From Candidatus Aminicenantes bacterium (GTDB lineage Bacteria > Acidobacteriota > Aminicenantia > JAMOAD01), in assembly GCA_035403085.1 (NCBI GenBank), contig DAONEM010000002.1, forward strand, positions 10,876 to 74,875: DNA of 64,000 bases. Direction: 5' to 3'. Position numbers and translations under genes: made by a program. This document shows positions 1-12,331 of this stretch, one piece after another; the stretch's first letter is position 1, and each line of letters begins with the position of its first letter. The notes under the pieces were generated by a model. It made no database searches, had not been told where the DNA came from, and worked only from the letters and a program-made list of their open reading frames with translations.

Positions 1-623
1 TCTCCTTCGGTTTCGCCGTCCTGGACTACTTCTCCCCCGGGAAAGACAAGACCCTCTTCCGGCTGGAGGGTTTCGACAGGGAGTGGCGACGGGCCGACCC
101 CCTTCAGAGCTCGGTGGTCTACACGAACCTCGCTCCCGGAAAGTACAGCTTTCGAGTCATCGCCGCGAACAGGGACGGCATTTGGAACCGTTGGGGCGTG
201 ACCCTGCCGGTTCGGGTCCGCCCGACCCTTCTTCAAGCACTCTGGTTTCGACTTCTTGCCGGAGGAGGGCTCCTTCTGCTCCTACTAGGCTTCGTCGGTC
301 TCCACTTCTACAGGAGCAGGCGAAGGGAGGAGCGGCTGGAGAGGGAGGTCAACGAGAGAACCGCGGAGGTCAAGGGAGCTCTGGCGGAGCGGGAGAAGCT
401 GATCGAGGAGTTACGACGGCTCCTGAAGAACGTCAAGGAACTCAACGGCCTCCTCCCGATCTGTTGCAACTGCAAGAAGATCAGGGACGATAAAGGGTAC
501 TGGCACCAAGTGGAGAACTATATCGAGAAGCACTCCCGAGCGGAATTCACCCACGGCCTTTGTCCTGAGTGTCGGGAAACGCTCTACCCTAAGCGTAAGA
601 AAAAAGAGGAGCCGGAGTCTTAA
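1..623 (+). CDS. 3' part of a membrane sensor: Y_Y_Y domain, TM helix, coiled coil and Cys-rich zinc-ribbon-like tail (5' end outside window)
   Basis: Frame 3 is open from the window edge. FAVLDYFSPGKDKTLFRLEGFDREW...LAPGKYSFRVIAANRDGIWN matches the Y_Y_Y motif. Hydrophobic LLAGGGLLLLLLGFVGL follows, then a charged coiled coil and the tail CCNCKK..(30 aa)..HGLCPEC. Confidence 0.7.
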   Translation, partial: SFGFAVLDYFSPGKDKTLFRLEGFDREWRRADPLQSSVVYTNLAPGKYSFRVIAANRDGIWNRWGVTLPVRVRPTLLQALWFRLLAGGGLLLLLLGFVGLHFYRSRRREERLEREVNERTAEVKGALAEREKLIEELRRLLKNVKELNGLLPICCNCKKIRDDKGYWHQVENYIEKHSRAEFTHGLCPECRETLYPKRKKKEEPES

Positions 624-637
624 AGGAGAGAGCTCCT

Positions 638-1096
638 TTACCCCTCCAATGTCGAGGTACAGTGGGGGCAACGCCGTGCCTTCAGGGGAATCGTGGAAAG
701 GCAGAAGGGGCAGCTCTTTTCCGTGGTCACCGGAGGCGGCAGGACCGGCTCCTCCGGCTTCCTGAGACGGTTGATCACCTTGAGAATCAGGAAGAGGGCG
801 AAGGCGACGATGAGGAAAGAGATGACCCTGTTGAGGAAGAGGCCGTAGGAAAAGGTGACGGCCCCCGCTTTCTGGGCCTCCGCCAGCGTAGAGAAGGGTC
901 CCTCCACGGTGCCTTTTTTGAGGATCAGGAAAAGGTTGGAGAAGTCAGTCTTCCCTAAGAGGAGCCCCAGGGGGGGCATGAGGATATCTGTGACCAGAGA
1001 GTTGACGATGGCTCCGAAGGCGCTTCCGACGACGACACCCACGGCCATGTCCAAGGCGTTTCCCTTCACGGCGAACTCTTTAAACTCTTTCAGCAT
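638..1096 (-). CDS. mscL: Large-conductance mechanosensitive channel MscL with an extra C-terminal CxxC...CxxC zinc-ribbon
   Basis: [33 protein letters not shown] is the MscL signature. Tail [32 protein letters not shown] lies before the ATG. Confidence 0.85.
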
Positions 1097-1197
1097 TCTT
1101 CCTCCTTTCTTCTCTTCCGTTTCCGCTACTTGAGCCGGTCTCTTTCCCGACGATGCCTGTGGAAGAGTCCCCGGTCAACCCCAGGAGACAGGGTACT

Positions 1198-1226
1198 ATT
1201 TTGCCGGAAAGGAGGGGACGTGACAA
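1198..1226 (-). promoter_or_regulatory. Candidate sigma70 promoter for mscL (TTGTCA-N17-CAAAAT on the minus strand)
   Basis: The hexamers and 17-nt spacer were read from the reverse complement. The leader to the ATG would be about 95 nt. Confidence 0.25.
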
Positions 1227-1254
1227 GGGAAACGAAGAAGCGGAGACTCCTCAA

Positions 1255-1283
1255 GAGGAGGGGAGGTCTTGTCTCCCCTCCTC
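1255..1283 (-). terminator. GC-rich hairpin immediately 3' of the DUF4097 gene
   Basis: GAGGAGGGGAG-N6-CTCCCCTCCTC perfect 11-bp inverted repeat 12 nt after the stop. There is no clear U-tract. Confidence 0.3.
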
Positions 1284-1294
1284 TTGGTGGGAGA

Positions 1295-2254
1295 TTAACG
1301 TTCCAGGATCTCCACACGTCCCGTCGCGGTGGAGAGGGAAATCTTCACGGAAGAGCCTCCCCGTCGAACGCTCTTCTTCTCATACTCCTCTCCCCACTCC
1401 GTGAAGGTCTCCTGTTTCTCGAAGGAGAAGGGGGCGGCAATGCGGCCTTCGCGTTTCCGCGCGGTCATCTCGAAGATCCCGTTCATCGGGTTGCCCTTGA
1501 AGTTGAGGGAGGCGTCTCCACTGGCCGAAGCCACGGAGAGATCTGCGGAAGGGCTCTTGTTCAGAGAGACCTTCATGTCCCCCGAAGCGGTTCTGAAGGA
1601 GGAGGGTCCCGTTACGGTGACGTCGACGTCTCCGTCGCCGCTGGCCAGGGAGAAATGGAGGCTCCCCTGCGCGTCCTCGGCGGAGAGGTCGCCTGAGGCG
1701 AGGGAGGCGCGGGTCTCCCCTTTGGTCTTGTTTAGGGTGATGTCCCCGGAGGCCGTGTTCAGGGAGAGGGAACCCTGAACGTTCTTGAGGGTCAAGTCGC
1801 CGGAGGCGGAACGGAGGGAGAAAGAGCCTTCACAACGGCTGATGAGGATATCTCCAGAGGCGGTCTTCCCCTTGAACTCCCCCTTCAGATCCTCGCCGGT
1901 GATGTCTCCGGAGAGGGAGGAGGCGTTCACCGTAGCCCCTTCGGGAAGGGTGATCGTCCAGAGAATGTTTCCAGAGGAGTGGTCCCTGACCCAGCGTTCC
2001 TGAAGGGTCAGAGCCGTTCCCTCTTCGGAGACGACCGTCTCGACCGCTCCCGCGGGGGAGAGCTCGGCGACGACCAGAACGGTGATGGAATCGGTGGTTC
2101 CTCTTTTGAAAAGACAATCCCCGCTGATCGTCTTAATGTTCACCGTTCTCTTGTTGGGGAAGCTCTTCTCCAGGAGAACCTCTCTGCCCTGCGCCGCAAC
2201 GGTGAGGGTGAGAAGGGAGAGGCACAGGCCGAACAAAAATGTTTTTCGTTTCAT
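1295..2254 (-). CDS. Secreted DUF4097/DUF4098-type putative adhesin-like beta-helix protein with about 8 (A/T/S)SGD repeats
   Basis: Signal peptide MKRKTFLFGLCLSLLTLTVAAQG. Repeats TASGDILISRC / SASGDLTLKNV / TASGDITLNKT / LASGDLSAEDA recur about every 21 aa. Confidence 0.7.
   Translation of the reverse strand: MKRKTFLFGLCLSLLTLTVAAQGREVLLEKSFPNKRTVNIKTISGDCLFKRGTTDSITVLVVAELSPAGAVETVVSEEGTALTLQERWVRDHSSGNILWTITLPEGATVNASSLSGDITGEDLKGEFKGKTASGDILISRCEGSFSLRSASGDLTLKNVQGSLSLNTASGDITLNKTKGETRASLASGDLSAEDAQGSLHFSLASGDGDVDVTVTGPSSFRTASGDMKVSLNKSPSADLSVASASGDASLNFKGNPMNGIFEMTARKREGRIAAPFSFEKQETFTEWGEEYEKKSVRRGGSSVKISLSTATGRVEILER
1480..2000 (-). repeat. Intragenic tandem repeats of about 63 nt encoding the xSGDxxL beta-helix rungs
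   Basis: The motif TC(C/G)CC(G/A)GAGGC recurs on the plus strand about every 60-66 nt inside the DUF4097 CDS. Confidence 0.4.
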
Positions 2255-2270
2255 CTTTCCTCCTTGAAAT

Positions 2271-2378
2271 TCAGGGGGCCCGTTGCCCCCTTCTCCCAGA
2301 GTTTAGGGAAAAAGAGGGGGGCTGTCGCCCGGAATCGGGAAATCCGAACCTTTCGGAGTGTTCGGATTCACGATTCCG
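2271..2378 (-). terminator. Two stem-loops at the 3' end of the sensor/AraC gene: a long nested inverted repeat and a G5C hairpin
   Basis: CGGAATCGGGAAATCCGAAC-N10-GTTCGGATTCACGATTCCG (about 19-bp arms) overlaps the stop codon. AGGGGGC-ccgtt-GCCCCCT lies further 3'. A C-rich/T5 stretch sits between them on the minus strand. Confidence 0.35.
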
Positions 2379-4902
2379 GACCCTTCGATGGCTCCTTTCC
2401 GGGGAGAGAGCGACGCCAGAGAGAGGGTGTGGTCCCGTACCTCTTCTTAAAACCGGTGTTGAAGACCGACTTGGAGTTAAAACCGCACTCCAGAAGGATC
2501 TCCAGGACCGTCTCATCCCGGTTCTTCTGCAACCGTTCGCAGGCCTCCTGGAAACGGTACCCGTTGAGGTAGTCGTTGAACCCCTTGCCGAGGTGGTCGT
2601 TGAGAAAGCGGGAGAGAAGGTGGGGGGAGAGGGAGAGCCTCTCCGCCAACCTGGGCAGGGAGAGCAGGGGATCACGGTAGAGGCGGTCCCTCTCCATGGC
2701 CTTGCTCAGAAGAGAGGCGATGCGGGTGCTCTCTTCCGAGGGGAGGAGCGGCCTCGAAGGGCTCTTCCGCCTTCGTCGAAGGAATGCCCACGTCAACGTT
2801 CCCCCTCCGATCAACAGGAGGGAGAGGAGGAGGGGGAGGAAGGAGAGGTCTCGGGCCACACGGAACTTTCCCTCCCAAGGGGAAAGGAGTTCCGGAGCCG
2901 TCACCGTGAGGGTGTAGCGCCCCGGGGGAAGGGGGGGCAGGGAGAGGGTTCCCGCCTTCGCGGTCAAGGTCTTCTCCAGGGGCCCCTTGAGGGAGATCTT
3001 CAGAAGGTGCTCCCCTCTTTGCTCCTCACCAGGAAGGAAGAGGCGGAGGACGGGACGGCGGCACCGTTCCGAAAGCCTGCCCTCGGAGCCTAGGTCTTCA
3101 CAGAGGGGACCCTCTACCCAGAGTCCGGAAAGGGGAGGGGGCTCACCGTCGAAGGAGTTGAGAAGGACTCCCCTCCGGGAGGAGGCGTAGATCCTCCCAT
3201 CTTGTAGGGTTGAGACCAGGGGGTAAGCGGGGGAGGAGGGGGGCCTTGCCTCCGGGGTGTCCAGGAGGCGGCGGAGTTCCAGAGTGCCGGTCGTTGAAAG
3301 CTCCTGCTCCGGGGTACGGGAGAGGCGGAGAATGCCCCTGGAGGTTCCCGCCCAGAGGCGTCCTCCTCTGTCTCGAACCAGCCAGAGGATGCTCTCCCCG
3401 TCCAGGGCCCCTCTGTCGAAGAAGAAACGGTTGCCGAGAAAGAGGCCGATCCCGTTGTTGCGGGAACCGAGCAGGAGGCCTCTCCCAGGGGTCGGAAGGA
3501 GGGAGAGGAGGGGCGGCGAGGGGTGGAGGAGAGGTGCCTTGGAGGGCTTTAACTCGAGCAGCCCCTTGTCCGTCGCCGCCCAGAGGGTGCCCTCCCTTCC
3601 CAGGAGGAGCTCCCGGACCCCAGAGGCGGGGACCCTTTGCAGAACCTCTCCCTCCTGGAGGAGCAAGAGAGAACGGTCTGTTCCGGCCCAGAGGCGCTCT
3701 CCTTCACCCTTGACAAGACAGAGCAGGGGGCCCTCCTTCAGGGCGAAACGTCTTTCGACCCCTCCCCGAGGGGAGAGGAGGTAGAGGGTTCCTTCCCTGG
3801 AGCCGACCCAAAGCCGGCCCTCAGCGGAAGAGGCCAAGGAGAGGGGCGTCTCTTTGAGGGAAGCCGTAAGCCTCCGTCCTCCCTGAAGGCCCAGGAGGCT
3901 GTCGTTGGAAAGAATGGCCCAGAGAGCGCCTCCGGGGAGAAGGGTCAGAGCCTTCGTCTCCTCCTCGGGAAAGGCCTTAACCGGGGACCAGGCTTTGGGG
4001 CTTAAACGGAGAAGGCCTCCGGCGACGGATCCGGCCCAGAGAGTCTTGGTCTGAGAGACCCAGAGGAGGGAGTTGATCCAATCGTCGGGGATCCCCTGGG
4101 CGACCCCCAGGGGGGTCCACTCCCTTCCCTCCCTCTTGAGAAGGCCCTCTCCCTCCGAGGCTCCCCAGAGAAGACCCTCCTGGTCCTCCACTAAGGCCCG
4201 GAGAGGGGGACCATAAGGGGGGAGGAGGCGGCCTCCCTCTTCCAGAACGAGCCCCCCCTCCCCTCCGATCGCCAAGGAGCCGTCCCTTCTGATCAGAAGG
4301 GAGCGTACGAGACCCGGAAAGAGAGAGGTTACCACCCGCCGGGAGCCTTTGAGGAGGGAGACAACCTCTCCGTTCCCTCCCGCGAGAATCACTCCCTTAG
4401 GATCTTCCAGGAGGGAGGTCACCGGCGGGCGGGGGCCGTCGGAGCGGAGAGCGAACAGGGATTTACCGGCGGCCTTCACATAGAGGCCTCTCTCCGTTCC
4501 CGCCCAGAGGTTCCCCCCGCGGTCGACGAGAAGGGAGTAGACCGAGAGCTCCTTGAGCCCTTCCGGTGGTGGGTCGAATCGACCGCTTCGGCTATGGAGT
4601 AGCCTTGGGCCTCCGCCTTCGAAGCCGACCCAGAGGTCGCCGCTGGAAAGGGGGAGGAGGGAGAGGACCCTCCTTTTCGTATCCCCCTCTTCGAGAGGGA
4701 AGAAGCGGCTTCCGTCGAACCTGAGGAGTCCTTCCGGAGTTCCGAGCCAAAGCCAACCATCAGAGGATCTGGCGATAGCGGTGACCGTCGGTGTCGGCAA
4801 CCCTTCCCAGAGGCTCCATTGCCTCAAGAGAAGGTCCTGGGCCTCAAGGGGAAGAGAGAGAAGAAGAAGGGAGAAGAGCCCTTTTCTGACCCAAGAGAGC
4901 AT
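2368..4902 (-). CDS. Membrane one-component regulator: signal/TM, periplasmic Reg_prop beta-propeller repeats, Y_Y_Y domain, TM helix, cytoplasmic AraC-type HTH; no HisKA/HATPase/REC
   Basis: Repeated xLW(A/V)GT..GL.R motifs: DGWLWLGTPEGLLRFD, GNLWAGTERGLYV, RLWVGSREGTLYLL, RLWAGTSRGILRL. Y_Y_Y-like PPGRYTLTVTA. TM LPLLLSLLLIGGGTLTWAF. C-terminal AraC HTH ...GFNSKSVFNTGFKKRYGTTP. The ORF track starts at 5013; the internal ATG at 4902 has a GGAGG RBS and begins the signal-like MLSWVRKGLFSLLLLSL. Confidence 0.8.
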   Translation of the reverse strand: MLSWVRKGLFSLLLLSLPLEAQDLLLRQWSLWEGLPTPTVTAIARSSDGWLWLGTPEGLLRFDGSRFFPLEEGDTKRRVLSLLPLSSGDLWVGFEGGGPRLLHSRSGRFDPPPEGLKELSVYSLLVDRGGNLWAGTERGLYVKAAGKSLFALRSDGPRPPVTSLLEDPKGVILAGGNGEVVSLLKGSRRVVTSLFPGLVRSLLIRRDGSLAIGGEGGLVLEEGGRLLPPYGPPLRALVEDQEGLLWGASEGEGLLKREGREWTPLGVAQGIPDDWINSLLWVSQTKTLWAGSVAGGLLRLSPKAWSPVKAFPEEETKALTLLPGGALWAILSNDSLLGLQGGRRLTASLKETPLSLASSAEGRLWVGSREGTLYLLSPRGGVERRFALKEGPLLCLVKGEGERLWAGTDRSLLLLQEGEVLQRVPASGVRELLLGREGTLWAATDKGLLELKPSKAPLLHPSPPLLSLLPTPGRGLLLGSRNNGIGLFLGNRFFFDRGALDGESILWLVRDRGGRLWAGTSRGILRLSRTPEQELSTTGTLELRRLLDTPEARPPSSPAYPLVSTLQDGRIYASSRRGVLLNSFDGEPPPLSGLWVEGPLCEDLGSEGRLSERCRRPVLRLFLPGEEQRGEHLLKISLKGPLEKTLTAKAGTLSLPPLPPGRYTLTVTAPELLSPWEGKFRVARDLSFLPLLLSLLLIGGGTLTWAFLRRRRKSPSRPLLPSEESTRIASLLSKAMERDRLYRDPLLSLPRLAERLSLSPHLLSRFLNDHLGKGFNDYLNGYRFQEACERLQKNRDETVLEILLECGFNSKSVFNTGFKKRYGTTPSLWRRSLPGKEPSKGPES

Positions 4903-5006
4903 GCTTTGCCTCCATGGAAGAGAAGACGAAAGGGGGCAGAGGTTTGTTCCCCGGAACCTTTCTTTCCCTTCAGGGGAGTACCTTCGGGCTTTCCGGAGTT
5001 GTCTTC

Positions 5007-5035
5007 TTGTCATCCCGGAGAAAGGTGAGTAGAAT
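5007..5035 (+). promoter_or_regulatory. Near-consensus sigma70 promoter for the esterase-methyltransferase operon (TTGTCA-N17-TAGAAT)
   Basis: Hexamers at 5007-5012 and 5030-5035 with a 17-nt spacer. Predicted TSS is about 5042, leader about 40 nt, RBS GGAGG at 5073. Confidence 0.45.
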
Positions 5036-5041
5036 GAAGGG

Positions 5042-5066
5042 ATCCGGAAGATTGTTCCCTCCGGAT
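5042..5066. promoter_or_regulatory. Palindrome ATCCGGA-N11-TCCGGAT at the predicted +1 site, within an intergenic region carrying five CCGGA(A/G) motifs; candidate operator for the divergent AraC-type regulator
   Basis: Perfect 7-bp inverted repeat. CCGGA copies near 4946, 4992, 5014, 5044 and 5061. Confidence 0.3.
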
Positions 5067-5083
5067 TTTAATGGAGGCCGACT

Positions 5084-6214
5084 ATGGGCAAGAAGCTCCT
5101 TCTCCTTTTCCTCATCCTCGCTTCCTTTCTTCCCCTTTCGGGGGAGAAGAAGAGAGGCCTCTGGACAGATCCGGACTCCATCGATCCCCTTAAGATCGGA
5201 GTCTCCTCCTTCTTGAGCGTCGACCTGGGAGAGTACTTCGACAAGGCCTACAAGGCTATGGGGAAGAAGGAGTACTACCAGGCCGCTCAACTCTACCTCT
5301 TCATCCTTCACCATCGACCCGACGACGGAGAGGCTCTCTACAACCTTGCCTGCGCCTATGCGGGGCTCGGGGAGCCCAAACTGGCGGTTCCTTTCCTGGA
5401 AAGGGCCTTCGAGACGGGGCGTTTCTCTCTTGCGCAGATTCGCAGGGACAACGACCTTCAGCCCTTGGCTGGGGAGAGGAGCTTCGACGAAGCCTTGAAG
5501 CGGATGGAGGAAGAGGAGGCGGGGCGGGGTAAGTGGTTCTACTTCGCGGCGCCCCGGGTGGCGAGATGCCGCATCCACATCCCCGAAGGGTTCGATGCCC
5601 GCAAGAGTTACCCCCTCTTGGTCGGTCTACACGGGTATGGGGGCAACGCCGACGAGTTCGGCGGAATCTGGAAGTTCCTGCAGGGGAGGGAGCTCATCTA
5701 CGTCGCCTTGGAGGCCCCCTATCCCTTTCCTCCCAGCGGAAGAGTGAGGGGAAGCCACTACTCCTGGTCTTTCCCGGATCAGAATCCGGACCTGGGAAAG
5801 CTGGCGGACCCCCTGATCGCCGACACCGTAGAGGCCGTTGTCCGCCAGATCTCCCAGAGGTACTCCCTGAAGGGGGTCTACCTTTTCGGTTTCTCCCAGG
5901 GGGCCGTCTACGCGTACTACTGCCTCTCTCAGACCCCGGAACTCTACCAAGGGGTGATCGCCTTCGGGGGGCATCTGCCCCTGAAGGGGGCGACCTCCCC
6001 CTTCCGTGAGGAGGAACTGGCAAGGGCCAAGGGGGTCAAGGTCTTCATCGCCCACGGAAGGCAGGATCCGGTGGCGGACTTCCAAGAGGCCGTCCTGGCC
6101 AGAGACGACCTCAAGAGGCTCGGCTTCGATGTCACCTTTTCCGAGTTTCCAGGGGGCCACTCCATCCCCCCCTCGGTTCTCTCGAAGGCCCTCCTTTGGA
6201 TGGAGGGGCTCTGA
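5084..6214 (+). CDS. Secreted alpha/beta-hydrolase (esterase, phospholipase/carboxylesterase-type) with N-terminal TPR-like region
   Basis: Signal peptide MGKKLLLLFLILASFLPLSG. HGYGGN oxyanion region, GFSQGA nucleophile elbow, later Asp (GRQDPV) and His (PGGHS). Confidence 0.75.
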   Translation: MGKKLLLLFLILASFLPLSGEKKRGLWTDPDSIDPLKIGVSSFLSVDLGEYFDKAYKAMGKKEYYQAAQLYLFILHHRPDDGEALYNLACAYAGLGEPKLAVPFLERAFETGRFSLAQIRRDNDLQPLAGERSFDEALKRMEEEEAGRGKWFYFAAPRVARCRIHIPEGFDARKSYPLLVGLHGYGGNADEFGGIWKFLQGRELIYVALEAPYPFPPSGRVRGSHYSWSFPDQNPDLGKLADPLIADTVEAVVRQISQRYSLKGVYLFGFSQGAVYAYYCLSQTPELYQGVIAFGGHLPLKGATSPFREEELARAKGVKVFIAHGRQDPVADFQEAVLARDDLKRLGFDVTFSEFPGGHSIPPSVLSKALLWMEGL

Positions 6215-6834
6215 TGGCCGCCGACATCGGAAGAATCGTCTCCGAGCTCATCTCTTTTCGCAGCCTCCTGGGTAAGAGGGTTCTCTCGGTGGGTGCAGGG
6301 GGAGGGCAGTTTGTCGGCCTCTACAGGGAAGCGCGGGAGGTCGTCGCTCTGGACAACGACCCTTCCGCTCTGGATGCCTTGCGGGAGAGGGTGAGGTTGG
6401 AGGGGCTTGAGAACAGGGTGACTCCGCTCCTGGGGGATCTTCTCCTCCTTCCGGAGGGGGAAAAATACGACCTTCTCCTCTTCGAGTTCAGCCTCCACGA
6501 GATGGGAGACCCCGAAGTGGCGCTGAAAAAGGCCTGTACTCTCGCCTCAGAAGTCCTTGTGGCCGACCACGACCCCTCTTCCCCTTGGGCCTCTCTGGTC
6601 GGAGAGGGGGAGAAGGTCGCCCGTGCCTGGCGGGGCGTGAGGAACCGTGGCGCTCTCCTGGAGGTCGCCCATGGTGGGGAGCAGATCTTTTCCTCGAAGG
6701 AGGAGCTCCTGAGAAGGGTCGCCCCTCTGGGGCCGGAGGTTCAAGGTAACGCCAGGGCCTGGGCGGAGAGGGAGGGGCTCAGAATCCCTATGGTCTACAG
6801 GTTCGCCCTTCTCAAAGGGCTTTCAGGTTCCTGA
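6214..6834 (+). CDS. Class I SAM-dependent methyltransferase
   Basis: Motif I VLSVGAGGGQFVG and an acidic residue after beta2 (VVALDND). The ATG at 6214 overlaps the esterase stop (ATGA), indicating coupling. The ORF track starts 18 nt earlier. Confidence 0.65.
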   Translation: MAADIGRIVSELISFRSLLGKRVLSVGAGGGQFVGLYREAREVVALDNDPSALDALRERVRLEGLENRVTPLLGDLLLLPEGEKYDLLLFEFSLHEMGDPEVALKKACTLASEVLVADHDPSSPWASLVGEGEKVARAWRGVRNRGALLEVAHGGEQIFSSKEELLRRVAPLGPEVQGNARAWAEREGLRIPMVYRFALLKGLSGS

Positions 6835-7705
6835 CCCTGATCATCTGGGCGGCGATGCTGACGGCGATCTCTTCGGGGGTCTGGCTTCCGATGGGAACTC
6901 CCGCGGGGGAGACGATCCTCGCCAACTCCTCCCGGGAGAAACCCTCCTTCGCCAGGCGCTCCTTAATGGTCCCGCCCTTCTCGGGGCTGGCGACCAGGGC
7001 CAGGTAGGCGAAGGGCCTTCTCAGAAGGCTCCTCAAGGCGACCTCGTCCCAGAGGTGTTGGGAGGTCATGACGACGACGTAGCTCTCCTCCCCTTGGGGG
7101 ACCCTCTCCCCTACCGTGGTGAAGGGGTTCTCCTCGTGCCGTTCATCGAAGAGGGCGACCGAGAAACCGAGGCCGGGGAGGATCTTCGCCAACGCCACGG
7201 CCAGGTGACCTCCGCCGATGAGGGAGGCCCGCCATCGGCTTCCCAAGGGGGAGAGAAAGCTCCACCCCTTGGGAAGCCTTTCAAAGAGGGGTTCCCGGCG
7301 GAGGGTAGCCGACCAGGAGAGGGTGGTAGGGGTGATGGCGAGAGTGCCGGAACCCCCTTGCCTTAAGGCGCCGACGATCCGTTCAACCTCTTCGAGAAAG
7401 GCCGGGGGAACGGGGAGGAAGAGAAGGGTCATCTCCCCTCCGCAGAGGGTTCCGGACTCCTCTTCCTTGAGGAGGAAACGGAGAGGGGGGGGAGGGGGAT
7501 CCCCCTCCAGAACCCTTCTCGCCCTTTCCAAGGCCAGAAGCTCGGTCTGGCCGCCTCCGATGGTCCCGGCCGATTCTTCCGGTGTGACGGCCATGAGGAA
7601 CCCCGCCCTTCCGGGAGAACTTCCCGAGCTCTCTGCCACTACCACTAACAAAGCCCTTCCCCCTTTCAGAAGGGTTCTTTGGAGAAGAGCCCAGGGTTCA
7701 ACCAT
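6812..7705 (-). CDS. XdhC/CoxI family xanthine dehydrogenase accessory (Mo-cofactor insertion) protein
   Basis: MVEPWALLQRTLLKGGRALLVVVAESSGSSPGRAGF is a typical XdhC N-terminus. C-terminal Rossmann-like IGGGHLAVALAKIL. The upstream 56 codons of the ORF are Pro/Ser-rich and overlap the next gene, so the start is taken at ATG 7705. Confidence 0.7.
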   Translation of the reverse strand: MVEPWALLQRTLLKGGRALLVVVAESSGSSPGRAGFLMAVTPEESAGTIGGGQTELLALERARRVLEGDPPPPPLRFLLKEEESGTLCGGEMTLLFLPVPPAFLEEVERIVGALRQGGSGTLAITPTTLSWSATLRREPLFERLPKGWSFLSPLGSRWRASLIGGGHLAVALAKILPGLGFSVALFDERHEENPFTTVGERVPQGEESYVVVMTSQHLWDEVALRSLLRRPFAYLALVASPEKGGTIKERLAKEGFSREELARIVSPAGVPIGSQTPEEIAVSIAAQMIRVRNLKAL

Positions 7706-8174
7706 GGATTCCCCCCAGAAGACGGGCCATGACGGCGTAGTAGAGGGCCATGATCCCGGAGAAGGTCGCCGACCCGAGGAATCTGTGCGAGAGGGGAAGC
7801 TTGTTCTGGACAACGTAGTTTCCCACCGCCGAAAGGGGAAGGGAGATGAGGAAGGAGGAGAGGGAGGCGGCAAGAAGGCCTGAGGCCAGGAGTGCTTGGC
7901 CCGAGAAGAGGCGGAGGAAGAAGAGGTGTCTGGCGATCCAGAGGGGGTTGAAGTAGAGAAGGGCCAGGAGGAGCTTCCTCAAGGGGCGCTCTTCGGAGAG
8001 GCCGGAGATGATGGAGAAGGCCAGAGGAACCTCCCACGCGTAGAGGGAAGCGCCCACGAGGGAGAGCCCCAGGAAGCGACCCCACGTGAAAGAACCTGTC
8101 AGCAAGGCCCCCAAGGCGTCCCCGACGGGGTAGAGGATCGCCCCGGCGACGACCCGGCGCTTTTGGAGGATCAA
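7698..8174 (-). CDS. Small polytopic membrane protein of unknown function between the xdh Mo-subunit gene and xdhC
   Basis: Likely TTG start at 8174 (LILQKRR...) with RBS GGAGGAAGG 8 nt upstream, overlapping the xdh stop. About 4 hydrophobic segments. The first 107 codons of the ORF-track call overlap the xdh Mo-subunit gene in another frame. Confidence 0.45.
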   Translation of the reverse strand: MILQKRRVVAGAILYPVGDALGALLTGSFTWGRFLGLSLVGASLYAWEVPLAFSIISGLSEERPLRKLLLALLYFNPLWIARHLFFLRLFSGQALLASGLLAASLSSFLISLPLSAVGNYVVQNKLPLSHRFLGSATFSGIMALYYAVMARLLGGIHG

Positions 8175-10441
8175 GGCTTGCCTTCCTCCCTTTGGACGAG
8201 GAGGTTCAGGAGCCTTTCGTTGGTCAAGGGGGCGATCCCTTGGAAGGGTTGCGGCCTTCCCCAGGCGTTGATCGCCTTCCAAAGGGCTTGGTAGCCGGCG
8301 ATTCCGTAGAGGAAGGGGGGTTCGCCGGTCGCCTTCGACCCCAGGAGCCCCCGGACGCCTCCCTCCTCCTCTTCGAGAAAGCGGACATCCACCACCCCTG
8401 GGCAAGAGGAGAAATCTGGAACCTTGTAGGTGGTGAGGGTGTCGGTGATCATCTTCCCCTGAGGGGTCACCCTGCTCTCTTCGAGGGTGAGCCACCCGAG
8501 ACCCTGGAGGAAGGCCCCCTCAATCTGGCCGCGGTCCACCTCGGGTGCCGGTGTGCTCCCCACGTCGTGAACGACTTGGAATCTGTCGGTGCGAAAGGTT
8601 CCCCGAAGGGTGTCCAGGGTAACTTCGACCAAGGCCGTTCCAGAGACGTAGTAAGAGAAAGGCTCCCCCCGCTCTCTCTTACCGTCGAACCAGATGGCGG
8701 GGGTGGCGTAATGGACGAGGGCCGAGAGGTGAACCCGCTTTTGGTAGGCTTCCTTGACGACTCTCTCCCAGCTCCAGGTGGTCTTCTTCCCACCCCTTTC
8801 CAAGAGGCCCCTTCGGAAGAGAAGCTCCTCGGGAGAGGCGCCCAGAAGCTCCGCGGCGACGGCGAGGAGCCTTTCCTTCAGGAGGAGGGCGGCTCTTCGG
8901 GCGGCTTCGCCGTTCAGGTCCGCGCCGGTGCTGGCGGCGGTGGGGGAGGAGTTGGCGATGCGGGATGTGTCAGTGCTCTCCATACGGATTCGGGAGGGAG
9001 GGATTCCCAAGGTTTCCGCGACGGCCCTGGAGATCTTCACGGAGACTCCCTGGCCCATCTCTACGGCACCGGTGCTCACGGAGACGCTCCCGTCCGTGTA
9101 GACGTTGACCAGGGCGGAGGCCTGGTTGAGGGGGGTGTAGGTGAAGGCGATGCCGAAGTGGATCGGCATGAGGGCCGCCCCCTTCCGGCTCCAGGAAGCG
9201 GAGCGGTTGTACTCTTCGATCCTGGCCTCTGTCTCTTCCCAGCGGAAGAGGGCCTTCGCCTTCTTCCAACTGGCGGGGAGAGTCTCTTTCCCGAGGGTCT
9301 TCCCGTAGGGAAGGGTGTCCCCCTCCCTCAGAAGGTTGCGCTCCTTCAGCTCCTCCAGGGGAACCTTCATGGTCTCGGCGGCCTGGAAGAGGGCCGACTC
9401 TATCGCGAAAAAGGCTTGGGGGGCGCCGAAGCCTCTGAAGGCCGTTCTGGGCACATGGTCCGTCCGGCAACTGAGACCCGTGGCCCGCCCGTTGGGAACC
9501 CTGTAGGCTCCGGTGGCGTGGAGCAGGGTTCGGCTCAAGATAGAGAGGGAGAGGTCCATGGCGGCCCCTCCGTCCTGGTGAAAGAGGACCCGATAGGAGA
9601 GGATCCGCCCCTCTCGGTCGAGGCCGAGGGAGTAGTCCGTGGAGTAGGGATGGCGTTTCCCCGTGAAGGCCATGTCCTCCCTCCTGTTCAGGCTCAGGCG
9701 GAGAGGGCGGTTCAGGAGCCTGGCGCCGAGCGCGGCCAAAGCGGCCCAGGAGTTTGCGTTGGTCTCTTTCCCCCCGAAACCGCCACCCAGACGGAAGGCC
9801 TCTACGGTGACCAGGTGCATGGGGAGGCCGAGGATCCGGGCGACCGTCTTCTGGGTGCCCCCAGGGGACTGGGTGGATGAGAAGACCTTGACCCCTCCGT
9901 AGGGGAGAGGGAGGGCCAGGGCGCTCTGGGTTTCCATGTAGAGGTGTTCTTGATCACCCGAGTCGGCTCGTCCCTGAATCTTCCAGAAGGAGTCTTCCCA
10001 GGCCTTGTCAGGTTCACCCCAAGAGAGAACCTCGGGAGGGGCGTGGAGGCGTCCTTTGAGCGCGGCCTCCCGGGGATCGAACACGGGTCTCTCCCCAAGG
10101 GCCTCGACAACGATGAGGGGGAGGGCCCGGCGGGCGATCTCTTCGCTCTCGGCGACCACAAGGGCCAAGGGGTGACCGGGGTGGAGGATTCTTCGCTCCG
10201 CCAAGAACGGTTCGTCCGGAGCGAGGTCGTTCACCTGGTTCTCGCCGGGGATATCCTTGGCCGTAAAAACGGCCTTGACCCCCTCTAGGGCGAGGGCGGC
10301 AGAGGGGTCGATGCTCAGTAACTCCCCGCAGGGGACGGGAGGGGGTAAGACGGCTCCGAAGAGGGTCCCTTCGGGAAGGGGGAAGTCGACGACATAGAGG
10401 GGCTCCCCTTTCAGGGCCGCCAGGGAGAACTTTTTATCCAC
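8171..10441 (-). CDS. Xanthine dehydrogenase/aldehyde oxidase family molybdopterin-binding large subunit
   Basis: a/b-hammerhead and MoCo-binding regions (KDIPGENQVND, ETQSALALP, large C-terminal Mo domain). The ORF track starts at TTG 10492 with no RBS; GTG 10441 (VDKKFSLAALKG) follows an AGGAGAAAG RBS and overlaps the upstream stop. Confidence 0.8.
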   Translation of the reverse strand: MDKKFSLAALKGEPLYVVDFPLPEGTLFGAVLPPPVPCGELLSIDPSAALALEGVKAVFTAKDIPGENQVNDLAPDEPFLAERRILHPGHPLALVVAESEEIARRALPLIVVEALGERPVFDPREAALKGRLHAPPEVLSWGEPDKAWEDSFWKIQGRADSGDQEHLYMETQSALALPLPYGGVKVFSSTQSPGGTQKTVARILGLPMHLVTVEAFRLGGGFGGKETNANSWAALAALGARLLNRPLRLSLNRREDMAFTGKRHPYSTDYSLGLDREGRILSYRVLFHQDGGAAMDLSLSILSRTLLHATGAYRVPNGRATGLSCRTDHVPRTAFRGFGAPQAFFAIESALFQAAETMKVPLEELKERNLLREGDTLPYGKTLGKETLPASWKKAKALFRWEETEARIEEYNRSASWSRKGAALMPIHFGIAFTYTPLNQASALVNVYTDGSVSVSTGAVEMGQGVSVKISRAVAETLGIPPSRIRMESTDTSRIANSSPTAASTGADLNGEAARRAALLLKERLLAVAAELLGASPEELLFRRGLLERGGKKTTWSWERVVKEAYQKRVHLSALVHYATPAIWFDGKRERGEPFSYYVSGTALVEVTLDTLRGTFRTDRFQVVHDVGSTPAPEVDRGQIEGAFLQGLGWLTLEESRVTPQGKMITDTLTTYKVPDFSSCPGVVDVRFLEEEEGGVRGLLGSKATGEPPFLYGIAGYQALWKAINAWGRPQPFQGIAPLTNERLLNLLVQREEGKP

Positions 10442-11870
10442 CTTTCTCCTCCAGTACAAGGTTCTCAAGGAGGGGGGCCTGCTCGGGAGCAAGTCTCAAG
10501 AGAACGCCGGCGACCAGCCTTCCTAAGAGATGGGTCTTGTAGAGCGCGGAACCACGAACGTCGTCAATAGGGGTGACCTCTCCCTTCGCCGTCTCCCCGG
10601 CCTCCCGGATGAGCCCAGGAGAGAGGGGCGAGGAGAGGAGGAGGGCTGAGGTCTTCGAGAGGAGAAGGGGTACCGGGGCCACTCCTCCGGCGGCAAGACG
10701 GGCCTCCTCCAGGTGTCCCTCTTTGAGAAGGAGGAGGGCCGAGAGGTTCACCGAGGCGATATCCAACCGTTCCCGTCGGGAGACCTTCTCGAAGAACAAC
10801 CGGCTTCCCTCGGTAGGGAGGGGGATCAAGATTCTCTCCACAAGCTCTCCCGGAAGGAGGTCAACCTTTCGGTAGGCTAAGAAGAACCTCTCCAGGGGGA
10901 GGGTCCGTCGGCTGTTCCCCTTCACCAACCGGAGAGAGGAGCCCAGGGAGAGAAGGATCAGGGAGAGGTCTCCGATCGGGGAGGCGTTGACGAGATTCCC
11001 CGCCAGAGTTGCTCTGGCGCGTATGGGAGGAGAGGCCACGGAGAGAAGGGCGGTGGAGAGCTCGGGGAAGTGATCGGCCACCAGGGGAGAGAGACGGAAC
11101 TCCTCCAGGTTCACTCCGCCCCCCAGGGAGAGAAACTCGCCGCTTCTTCGAATCCCTTGAAGGGAGGGCTTGCGGGAGAGGAAGAGGGGGGAGGAAAGAG
11201 TCTCCCTCTGAACGAGAAGGTCTGTCGCCCCGCCGACGGGGAGAGCCCCCCGGCGATGGGAGGGAGGGGGAGGGTCGGGAAGGGCTTGGGCGAGGGAGGG
11301 AACCCAAGGGGGCAGAACCTTTCGGGCCACGAGCCACTCCATCCTGGCGAGGAGGCCACGGCGGCCGGACTCTTCGAATTCCCCCTTCTCCCAGAGGGAA
11401 CAGAGGGCTTCGATACCTCTGCCGAGGGAGGCGTAGCCTGTGCAACGGCAGAGGTTGCCTCCCAGAGCCTCCCTGGCGAGGGAGGAATCCAGGCGGGGGG
11501 AGTTGAGAAGGAAACCGGTGAGGGCGACGACGAATCCCGGTGAGCAGAAGCCGCACTGGACCACACCCGCCTCTTCCAGAGCCTTCTGGACCGGCGTGGT
11601 TCCCTCCGCCGAGAGGCCCTCGATGGTGAGGATGTGGCTCCCGTCGATCTCTCCGGCCGGGAGCAGGCAACTGTTAACGCTTCTGTAGAGGGTTTGCGCC
11701 CCCTCCCGTCGTCCCCAGAGGATCATGCAGGCCCCGCAGTCCCCCTCGCGGCAACCCTCCTTGGTCCCTACCAGGGAGAGGTCCCTTCTGAGAAGGTCGA
11801 CGACCCTTTGGGAAGGGGAGAGGGAGAGAGAGACTCTCCTCTGGTTGACCCAGAAGGTTGAGATTCCCAT
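10434..11870 (-). CDS. Xanthine dehydrogenase small subunit: N-terminal [2Fe-2S] domains fused to an FAD-binding domain
   Basis: CREGDCGACM and CGFCSPGF...CRCTGY 2Fe-2S motifs. CO-dehydrogenase-flavoprotein-like middle/C-terminal part. ATG 11870 (MGISTFWVNQRRV) preferred over the TTG 21 nt upstream. Confidence 0.8.
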   Translation of the reverse strand: MGISTFWVNQRRVSLSLSPSQRVVDLLRRDLSLVGTKEGCREGDCGACMILWGRREGAQTLYRSVNSCLLPAGEIDGSHILTIEGLSAEGTTPVQKALEEAGVVQCGFCSPGFVVALTGFLLNSPRLDSSLAREALGGNLCRCTGYASLGRGIEALCSLWEKGEFEESGRRGLLARMEWLVARKVLPPWVPSLAQALPDPPPPSHRRGALPVGGATDLLVQRETLSSPLFLSRKPSLQGIRRSGEFLSLGGGVNLEEFRLSPLVADHFPELSTALLSVASPPIRARATLAGNLVNASPIGDLSLILLSLGSSLRLVKGNSRRTLPLERFFLAYRKVDLLPGELVERILIPLPTEGSRLFFEKVSRRERLDIASVNLSALLLLKEGHLEEARLAAGGVAPVPLLLSKTSALLLSSPLSPGLIREAGETAKGEVTPIDDVRGSALYKTHLLGRLVAGVLLRLAPEQAPLLENLVLEEKGG

Positions 11871-11887
11871 CTTCGCAGGGGCTCCGA

Positions 11888-12331
11888 TCAAGGGATCAGA
11901 CCGGAACGGCGAAAGTTTCTCACCGTGTGCTTGACGGTGAAGTGGAGGTCAGGAATGGGCTTGGCCAAGGGGAACCAGCCGACGGCGCTGAACTTCCAGT
12001 TGGGGCTGGGCCAGTTCTCCGGTTTCTCTTTCACTCGAGAGAGATAGGTCCTGTACTCCCAGACGAAGGGGATCTGAATGAGGGTAACCTTGGTCTCGTC
12101 GGTGGCGAAGTAGCGTTCATCCAGGAGGAACTCCGTATTGGGGGCGCCGAACTCGGAACAGGTCTCCCGGAGGGCGCACTCCCAGTAACTCTCCCGATCC
12201 TTCCGGATTCCCCCGGGGATGCTCCAGACTCCAGAGGGTTTCGGGGTCCTCTTTCCAAGAAGGATCTCTCCACCCTGGGGGGTAGGGTAGAAGAAGAGGA
12301 ACCCCGCGCCCTCATACTTTTTCACCTTCAT
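11888..12331 (-). CDS. NUDIX hydrolase
   Basis: Nudix box GGIRKDRESYWECALRETCSEFG. ATG 12331 is preceded by GGAGGTGA. The upstream 116 codons of the ORF are a non-coding-like extension. Confidence 0.75.
   Translation of the reverse strand: MKVKKYEGAGFLFFYPTPQGGEILLGKRTPKPSGVWSIPGGIRKDRESYWECALRETCSEFGAPNTEFLLDERYFATDETKVTLIQIPFVWEYRTYLSRVKEKPENWPSPNWKFSAVGWFPLAKPIPDLHFTVKHTVRNFRRSGLIP

Follow-up and report, generated by a model that had tools for sequence, protein, structure and literature searches.

A candidate output module with a four-cysteine knot, widespread among bacterial sensors, at the end of a propeller/Y_Y_Y transmembrane protein of Candidatus Aminicenantes

The window, a 64-kb stretch of Candidatus Aminicenantes DNA, opens with the 3' end of a gene for a transmembrane sensor whose cytoplasmic part consists of a coiled coil and a compact four-cysteine (Cys4) motif, hereafter the knot; helix and knot together form the tail. 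Comparative sequence analysis indicates that this tail is one instance of a very large, unnamed and uncurated family, and its last ~70-95 residues, a heptad helix followed by the knot, are a probable portable signalling output module. What is new here is a modular sensor with an output resembling the dimerisation domain of the Fur family, joined to a sensor half like that of hybrid two-component systems (HTCS). The original prediction for this locus had described a membrane-tethered, zinc-ribbon-like tail as the sole output of a propeller sensor; the tail is no isolated peculiarity of such sensors, being found in 24,526 cluster representatives, mostly after PAS and receiver (REC) modules.

The sensor gene and the family defined by its tail

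Translation of the + strand in frame 3 from the start of the window gave an open frame of 206 codons without internal stops (nt 3-623, TAA at 621-623), which contains the motif LPICCNCKKIRDDKGYWHQVENYIEKHSRAEFTHGLCPEC in exactly the form first quoted and ends in RETLYPKRKKKEEPES; the Cys4 motif has no second copy within the 64-kb window. Pfam places a Y_Y_Y domain (PF07495) at aa 19-72 of this fragment (E = 1.2e-11), followed by a hydrophobic segment at aa ~76-103 and by 103 cytoplasmic residues, close to the ~100 originally estimated, which comprise a charged heptad helix and the Cys4 motif. An exact 60-mer of the gene matched no reference genome and was found in a JGI metagenome contig (L001), whose positions 5149-10755 correspond to window 1-5607 with 99.9% identity (BLAST). 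The full-length gene, whose retrieval had been proposed, lies on this contig (L001 3066-5771) and encodes 901 aa, the last 206 of which are held by the window. From the N-terminus, the complete protein comprises a signal/transmembrane (TM) segment, a Reg_prop propeller (Pfam E = 8.1e-50 for the propeller repeats), a Y_Y_Y domain (aa 714-766, E = 1e-10), a TM helix, a ~45-aa coiled coil and a 45-aa CxxC-29-CxxC knot, confirming the predicted propeller/Y_Y_Y sensor with a short cytoplasmic coiled coil and Cys motif. No kinase, helix-turn-helix (HTH), GGDEF or other curated or catalytic output domain was detected by Pfam or NCBIfam in the fragment or in the full protein (E <= 0.001 for the latter), again as predicted. 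The features of the window gene, including those derived from AlphaFold2 (AF2) models with their per-residue confidence (pLDDT), are as follows.

3-623, + strand: 3' end of the 901-aa transmembrane sensor gene (translation, match to L001, Pfam)
57-218, + strand: Y_Y_Y domain, the last extracytoplasmic module (Pfam PF07495)
228-311, + strand: TM helix LLQALWFRLLAGGGLLLLLLGFVGLHFY, then positively charged RSRRR (read from the sequence; same position hydrophobic in Y_Y_Y-tail homologues)
312-446, + strand: cytoplasmic charged coiled coil, or signalling helix (AF2 continuous helix, pLDDT 95-98; family heptad pattern)
within 312-446, + strand: last ~25 coiled-coil residues EREKLIEELRRLLKNVKELN, part of the conserved module (family-wide heptad pattern)
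447-590, + strand: Cys4 knot GLLPICCNCKKIRDDKGYWHQVENYIEKHSRAEFTHGLCPECRETLYP (invariant residues, AF2 topology, hhalign to Fur/PerR)
462-464, 471-473, 561-563 and 570-572, + strand: codons of the putative metal ligands C154, C157, C187 and C190 in fragment numbering (Cys4 motif)
591-623, + strand: non-conserved basic/acidic C-terminal end KRKKKEEPES and stop TAA at 621-623 (post-knot region variable in the family; stop common to L001, L084 and L085)

The stop codon is genuine. A sequencing error at 621-623, concealing a kinase domain further downstream, had been named as a possible objection; the same stop is present in three independent contigs (L001, L084 and L085), and no kinase continues beyond it, a convergent MscL gene starting 15 nt later.

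HTCS of the Bacteroides type combine a periplasmic Reg_prop and Y_Y_Y sensor with a following HisKA-HATPase-REC-AraC series. The window protein shares with them the N-terminal signal/TM segment, the Reg_prop repeats, the Y_Y_Y domain and a single TM helix through which the chain passes into the cytoplasm, but lacks HisKA-HATPase, REC and AraC HTH domains (E <= 0.001), and its cytoplasmic part is only a coiled coil with a Cys4 knot; at the window locus, soluble kinases and a REC protein instead come from separate upstream genes.

Using the 83-aa tail as a query, we identified 399 homologues (58-71% identity, E down to 1.6e-28), and 237 matches were retrieved and compared. All 237 share an identical CxxC-29-CxxC spacing, have 5-64 residues after the last Cys, and are invariant at a P, the four Cys, an R, a D and the His before CPxC, with near-invariant G, K, K, I, D, G, Y, W, Q, E, Y, H, S/T, A, F and P. 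The resulting family consensus, L-x2-[VI]-K-x-L-x-G-L-L-P-I-C-x2-C-K-K-I-R-D-D-x-G-Y-W-x-Q-[IV]-E-x-Y-[IV]-x2-H-[ST]-x-A-x-F-[ST]-H-G-[IL]-C-P-x-C-x3-L-Y-P, forms the C-terminal end of the proteins, behind a signalling input module, and the window protein agrees with it at every invariant position. The conserved unit also reaches ~25 residues upstream of the knot into a canonical heptad helix, with hydrophobic residues across the family at -21/-20, -17, -13, -10, -7 and -4/-3 from the first Cys; in PAS-containing members, conservation continues to the DITERK junction, which lies at a fixed distance from the knot. Downstream of the knot the sequence is variable (mean net charge +0.4 in the family alignment), and the knot core is acidic on average (net charge -1.6). 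The basic tail noted originally is thus present in the window protein, as KRKKK, but is peculiar to it and not a feature of the family. The junction between helix and knot (window 447-461, GLLPI; VKTLSGLLPIC in the family) follows the pattern L-[ST]-G-L-x-P. GGDEF domains start with D-x-L-T-G-L-P-N-R; the junction resembles this start, which may only reflect a common ending of signalling helices.

A hidden Markov model (HMM) search, exhaustive over 1.84 billion cluster representatives, returned 24,526 representatives at E <= 1e-3 and 20,585 at E <= 1e-10. The family is bacterial, spans >10 phyla and is rich in anaerobic lineages, with reference-genome loci in Desulfobacterota, Acidobacteriota, Bacteroidota/Ignavibacteria, Calditrichota, Nitrospirota, Chloroflexota, Verrucomicrobiota, Spirochaetota, Myxococcota and several candidate phyla. 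The tail had no match in Pfam, NCBIfam, PADLOC or PHROGs (for Pfam and NCBIfam even at E <= 10), and its matches to PDB sequences, with the single sequence as with a profile, were chance ones (glutamate dehydrogenase, TarL, Rad50 hook). The original question whether the tail defines a conserved uncharacterised domain is answered in the affirmative by these searches: fixed spacing in all 237 retrieved homologues goes together with the lack of a Pfam model, and the known DNA-binding or anti-sigma zinc-finger family that might have accounted for it did not appear in any of these databases. We found no published description of the helix-and-knot module or of its architecture in the open-access literature, in agreement with the original claim that the architecture is uncharacterised. 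Among 72,556 plasmids, the tail has a single match, an unannotated remnant that codes for a knot (56% identity) and is flanked by transposase genes of the IS21 and IS91 families on a Dongshaea marina plasmid (NZ_CP028898.1; L086 2501-2617).

Domain architectures were examined in 179 members, i.e. 76 reference-genome genes, for which the partner families are the best 25 of 46, and 103 unbiased representatives, for which the list of 24 families is complete. Across the members examined, the tail forms the C-terminal end of proteins with input or receiver modules (PAS, REC, GAF, HAMP, MASE, Cache, propeller/Y_Y_Y), and the families listed include no HTH, cyclase or kinase domain. Among the families listed for the 76 genes, PAS accompanies the tail in 32 cases, REC in 10, Reg_prop with Y_Y_Y in six and GAF in five, alongside MASE3, HisKA_7TM, Tll0287, TPR and SBP_bac_3, so that the tail mostly follows cytoplasmic PAS and REC, with propeller/Y_Y_Y as a minority partner (6/76). 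The Reg_prop/Y_Y_Y-TM-coil-tail architecture nonetheless recurs beyond the window (P0241, P0124-P0131 and these six of 76 genome loci). In the 103 unbiased representatives the partners are almost all inputs or receivers (PAS, REC, MASE6, GAF, HAMP, dCache, PocR and others), and HisKA/HATPase, GGDEF, EAL, HD-GYP, HTH and MCPsignal domains are absent. BLAST clustering and Pfam counts of flanking genes revealed no conserved neighbour of tail genes, with only generic families recurring (159 Pfam families among 124 neighbours).

Two complete input-coil-knot units were found per polypeptide in 26 of the 146 best-scoring representatives (P0238-P0279, e.g. P0238, P0239, P0240 and P0241), as REC-tail-REC-tail, membrane-tail-membrane-tail or two propeller-tail units; further sequence can therefore follow the knot at its C-terminal side, and whole units undergo tandem duplication. 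We rejected 'stand-alone' helix-and-knot proteins as candidate adaptors: they are probably split or frameshifted sensor genes. Two short open reading frames (ORFs) of this kind (73 and 95 aa; L082 4967-6222 and L083 5823-6288) overlap the end of an upstream HisKA_7TM-PAS gene or a 64-aa ORF.

A natural rearrangement of this very locus bears directly on the portability of the tail. A 231-aa protein with a REC domain, coil and tail (P0122) is 94% identical to the window protein over its last 84 residues, and its contig (L084) matches L001 1188-2051 (96%) and then L001 5502-5773 (93%), with an in-frame junction at ~5 nt of microhomology. The same 231-aa protein is encoded on several contigs from different sources; on one of them (L085), its gene is followed by MscL, DUF4097, Reg_prop-AraC, esterase and XdhC genes as in the window, at 99.5% identity.

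L084 1-1106 and L085 80-775; junction at L001 ~2051/~5502 (window ~354): REC-tail fusion (contig comparison)

These alignments therefore point to a ~3.45-kb in-frame deletion in a related population which, as read from the contigs, placed the coil and tail of the propeller sensor directly behind the REC domain taken from the REC-PAS-HisKA_2 kinase encoded upstream. Between the window and L084, the knot codons differ by seven synonymous and no non-synonymous substitutions, a comparison which at the codon level shows purifying selection on the knot. Taken together, the fusion and this substitution pattern show that the tail is portable and still constrained after rewiring. The two natural alleles, in genomes otherwise 99.5% identical, join this tail either to a periplasmic sensor or to a receiver and represent a ready-made pair for testing its role.

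Relationship of the knot to the Fur family

Template-free AF2 models show a long helix, a hairpin carrying the first CxxC, a short helix, a strand, and the CPxC at the start (N-terminus) of a further helix, i.e. a knot of beta-beta-alpha-beta topology with a pLDDT of only ~66-86. Fold searches with this template-free model ranked Fur, PerR and Zur at the top, each match being individually insignificant. Profile-profile comparison (hhalign) of a 386-sequence tail profile with a PerR C-terminal profile gave Prob 95.2% and a score of 39.3; the 43 aligned columns are 33% identical, and a 6-residue gap falls within the long strand of Fur. In 200 control shuffles, in which the four Cys were fixed and the other columns permuted, scores were 12.4+-3.1 with a maximum of 25.4. 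Alignment of the tail with a single divergent Fur ORF failed to reproduce the PerR link, and we therefore built a wider profile from three non-PerR members (Campylobacter jejuni Fur, a second Fur and an ORF from L035), which gave Prob 83.8% and a score of 28.1 versus 12.3+-2.6 for shuffles. Both comparisons thus lie at z = 6-9 against Cys-fixed shuffles. By plain HMMER the tail reaches only 17.7 bits against PerR, and the Pfam FUR model (PF01475) does not match it even at E <= 10.

From the profile comparisons, shuffles and fold searches, which indicate a remote similarity to the Zn(Cys)4 dimerisation domain of Fur, PerR and Zur, we conclude that the knot is probably a shortened relative of this domain, one that follows a coiled coil instead of being attached to the DNA-binding domain. 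It shares with the structures of PerR (2fe3), Fur (4ets/9ire) and Zur (4mtd) a CxxC...CxxC motif within a beta-beta-alpha-beta unit and profile-level similarity. The Cys pairs are, however, separated by 36 residues in the Fur domain and by 29 in the tail, through a 6-7 residue deletion in the long strand; coiled coil and sensor or receiver modules precede the tail in place of the winged-helix DNA-binding domain; and conservation is much higher in the tail family than among Fur dimerisation domains. The Asp of the tail RDD motif aligns with a PerR position which we take to be the regulatory-site Asp104. Apart from this position, the ligands of the regulatory metal site are not conserved, and the tail has Gly and Leu where PerR carries its HxH motif, immediately before the first Cys. 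Because the FUR model gives no match, the DNA-binding domain is absent and the regulatory site is not conserved, the tail lies outside the Fur family in the Pfam sense.

The knot had first been described as zinc-ribbon-like. A classical ribbon carries its two CxxC motifs on the beta-hairpin knuckles of a three-stranded sheet; in the AF2 models (pLDDT 66-86) a hairpin bears the first CxxC, and a helix begins at the CPxC. Zinc-ribbon Pfam models (zf-ribbon_3, DZR and others) have no match to the tail at E <= 10, and on the sequence evidence it appears to be neither a classical zinc ribbon nor a DNA-binding finger, with the Fur dimerisation domain as its best relative. Other candidates were discarded. 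The ZAS anti-sigma zinc finger (zf-HC2) and the DksA/TraR C4 fingers gave no Pfam or NCBIfam match at E <= 10, and they differ in motif, with H-x3-C-x2-C in zf-HC2 versus H-x2-C-x2-C in the tail, and C-x2-C-x17-C-x2-C after a coiled-coil hairpin in DksA/TraR versus Cys pairs 29 apart. An HNH/His-Me finger nuclease (no Pfam match, other motif order), a chemoreceptor zinc-binding CZB domain (no Pfam match, other ligand pattern) and a lipobox or sorting signal (the tail being cytoplasmic) were rejected without a dedicated test. Binding of cyclic di-GMP through the RDD motif was likewise not retained: the likeness to the RxDD of BldD is too short to weigh.

Two kinds of signalling protein offer conceptual parallels. 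HalOD2, a response-regulator output of a few halobacteria, comprises a HalX-like helical region and two CXXC motifs 20-25 residues apart that form a predicted Zn finger (PMC5847659). The tail resembles it as the output of a REC protein in which a helix precedes two CXXC motifs, but is set apart, going by that description, by its bacterial distribution over >10 phyla, its spacing of 29 and its many inputs. REC-GGDEF, PAS-GGDEF and PAS-HisKA proteins are analogous in mechanism, not fold: in them as in the tail proteins, the output directly follows a fixed-length signalling helix, which in the tail family begins at the PAS DITERK junction or behind REC or TM, and the set of input modules is the same; the deletion variant shows that recombination in linker helices can rewire tail proteins. 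Unlike these analogues, the tail has no catalytic or phosphotransfer domain and consists only of ~45 residues and a helix.

Proposed mechanism and competing explanations

We give about even chances to the reading that the window gene encodes a dimeric transmembrane sensor with a metal-clamped Cys4 output knot, driven by the coiled coil and read by a conserved partner encoded elsewhere. In the scheme that we infer, which extends from metal binding and dimerisation to the direction of signalling and the existence and nature of a partner, the four Cys would hold a metal ion, for which the precedent of Fur and PerR makes Zn the most likely candidate, and in a dimer the knots would pack against each other atop a parallel coiled coil, as Fur-family dimers do. 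A ligand bound to the propeller/Y_Y_Y module outside the cell would alter how the TM helices and the coiled coil, whose helical register relative to the knot is fixed, pack or align with each other. The paired knots would then present their highly conserved polar surface (KK-RDD-G-W, Q-E, HS, [ST]H) in another geometry or expose it to another degree, and a trans-encoded, conserved cellular partner would read it.

A more far-reaching version, which we consider possible but lean against, is that the helix and Cys4 knot act as a common transmitter through which thousands of sensors converge, via a near-invariant docking surface, on a single conserved hub, much as chemoreceptor tips converge on CheA/CheW; if so, the module would be a further major class of bacterial output beside kinases, cyclases, chemoreceptor signalling domains and DNA-binding domains. 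If the tail is a true output domain at all, a sizeable fraction of the sensory proteins in many phyla (Desulfobacterota, Acidobacteriota, Nitrospirota, Bacteroidota/Ignavibacteria, Chloroflexota, Verrucomicrobiota, Spirochaetota and several candidate phyla) would use a route not described in the databases and papers we found. Defining the module would improve the annotation of >20,000 sequence clusters now labelled only 'PAS domain protein', 'response regulator' or 'hypothetical', and the link to the Fur dimerisation domain provides a concrete structural hypothesis for it.

The tail might instead be a structural clamp for dimerisation or stability that carries no signal, the output coming from the N-terminal modules, e.g. 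through REC or PAS contacts. The closest relative of the knot is itself a dimerisation domain, neither flanking genes nor domain partners of the members examined revealed a partner gene or fusion, and single-domain REC and PAS proteins are able to signal by contact (reviewed in PMC12471899). Such a clamp would, however, leave a membrane sensor with an outside input without any cytoplasmic effector, and would duplicate the dimerisation already supplied by the coiled coil. Exposed polar residues kept at 60-70% identity over >10 phyla go far beyond the needs of a clamp, and regulated outputs typically show the kind of fixed-length coupling that links the tail to the PAS DITERK junction, so that we regard this explanation as unlikely. 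The same lack of an effector would persist if the Cys4 knot were a thiol or metal switch, i.e. a second input that gates dimerisation through PerR-, Hsp33- or RsrA-like oxidation or a rubredoxin-like Fe, which we judge distinctly unlikely. Its four invariant Cys including the CPxC knuckle, its invariant or near-invariant His, Asp and Glu, the alignment of the RDD Asp with the presumed Asp104 of PerR, and the wealth of anaerobic lineages in the family would suit such a sensor, and the PerR-Zn structure 2fe3 is titled as a Zn(Cys)4 structural redox switch. The remaining PerR/Fur regulatory ligands are nevertheless not conserved, with Gly and Leu at the HxH positions, and a shared output would account more readily for a module that thousands of sensors have in common despite their varied inputs.

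That the tail is a small nucleic-acid-binding zinc finger, making the protein a membrane-tethered one-component regulator like its propeller-AraC neighbour or ToxR/CadC, seems very improbable to us. This idea draws on the KK-R after the first knuckle, the basic end of the window protein, the HTH at the equivalent position of the neighbouring propeller-AraC relative, and the suggestion that HalOD2 binds DNA or RNA (PMC5847659). It is weakened by the average acidity of the core (net -1.6) and by a basic end that other members of the family do not share; moreover, the related part of Fur is the dimerisation and not the DNA-binding domain, Pfam and NCBIfam gave no match to DNA-binding families, and comparison of flanking genes revealed no conserved target genes nearby. 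The notion of a truncated or frameshifted histidine kinase with a chance Cys motif stems from an initial suspicion and from some very short 'stand-alone' members that look like split genes, and its probability is negligible given the stop shared by three independent contigs, the convergent MscL gene 15 nt downstream, the thousands of homologues with the same end and the purifying selection on the knot. A dimeric sensor with a metal-clamped output knot thus remains the reading we favour.

Genomic surroundings of the sensor gene

On L001, four genes on one strand overlap or lie very close together, and the sensor gene ends the series, the other three lying upstream at 59-3049; on the opposite side, genes of the window follow on the - strand.

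L001 59-1174, same strand as the sensor gene: PAS-HisKA-HATPase (Pfam)
L001 1171-1614, same strand as the sensor gene: REC only (Pfam)
L001 1595-3049, same strand as the sensor gene: REC-PAS-HisKA_2-HATPase (Pfam)
window 638-1096, - strand: MscL gene, 152 aa, convergent with the sensor gene (gene calls, Pfam)
window 2368-5013, - strand: 881-aa Reg_prop propeller protein with a C-terminal AraC-type HTH and without Cys4 tail (Pfam Reg_prop, HTH_18, HTH_AraC)

The four-gene cluster looks like an HTCS split into separate polypeptides. The propeller-AraC protein at 2368-5013 carries its HTH directly after the sensor part, with neither kinase nor receiver, and represents a one-component version of the HTCS architecture. 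The original prediction had taken it as a paralog suggesting a family of non-canonical transmembrane sensors; an AraC-type relative is indeed encoded nearby, but it is ~30% identical to the sensor over the propeller (E = 2e-22) and lacks the tail, and thus appears from sequence to be a distant relative of the sensor part only, the family being defined by the tail. Downstream of the sensor genes, window 6812-11891 (- strand) encodes an XdhC-type maturation factor and molybdenum hydroxylase subunits (MoCoBD, FAD_binding_5/[2Fe-2S]), and we saw no link between this cluster and the tail. The MscL protein has a C-terminal extension with a zinc-ribbon-like CxxC-x11-CxxC motif, unusual in a mechanosensitive channel, which weakly matches UPF0547 (E = 4.5e-4, below the cut-off).
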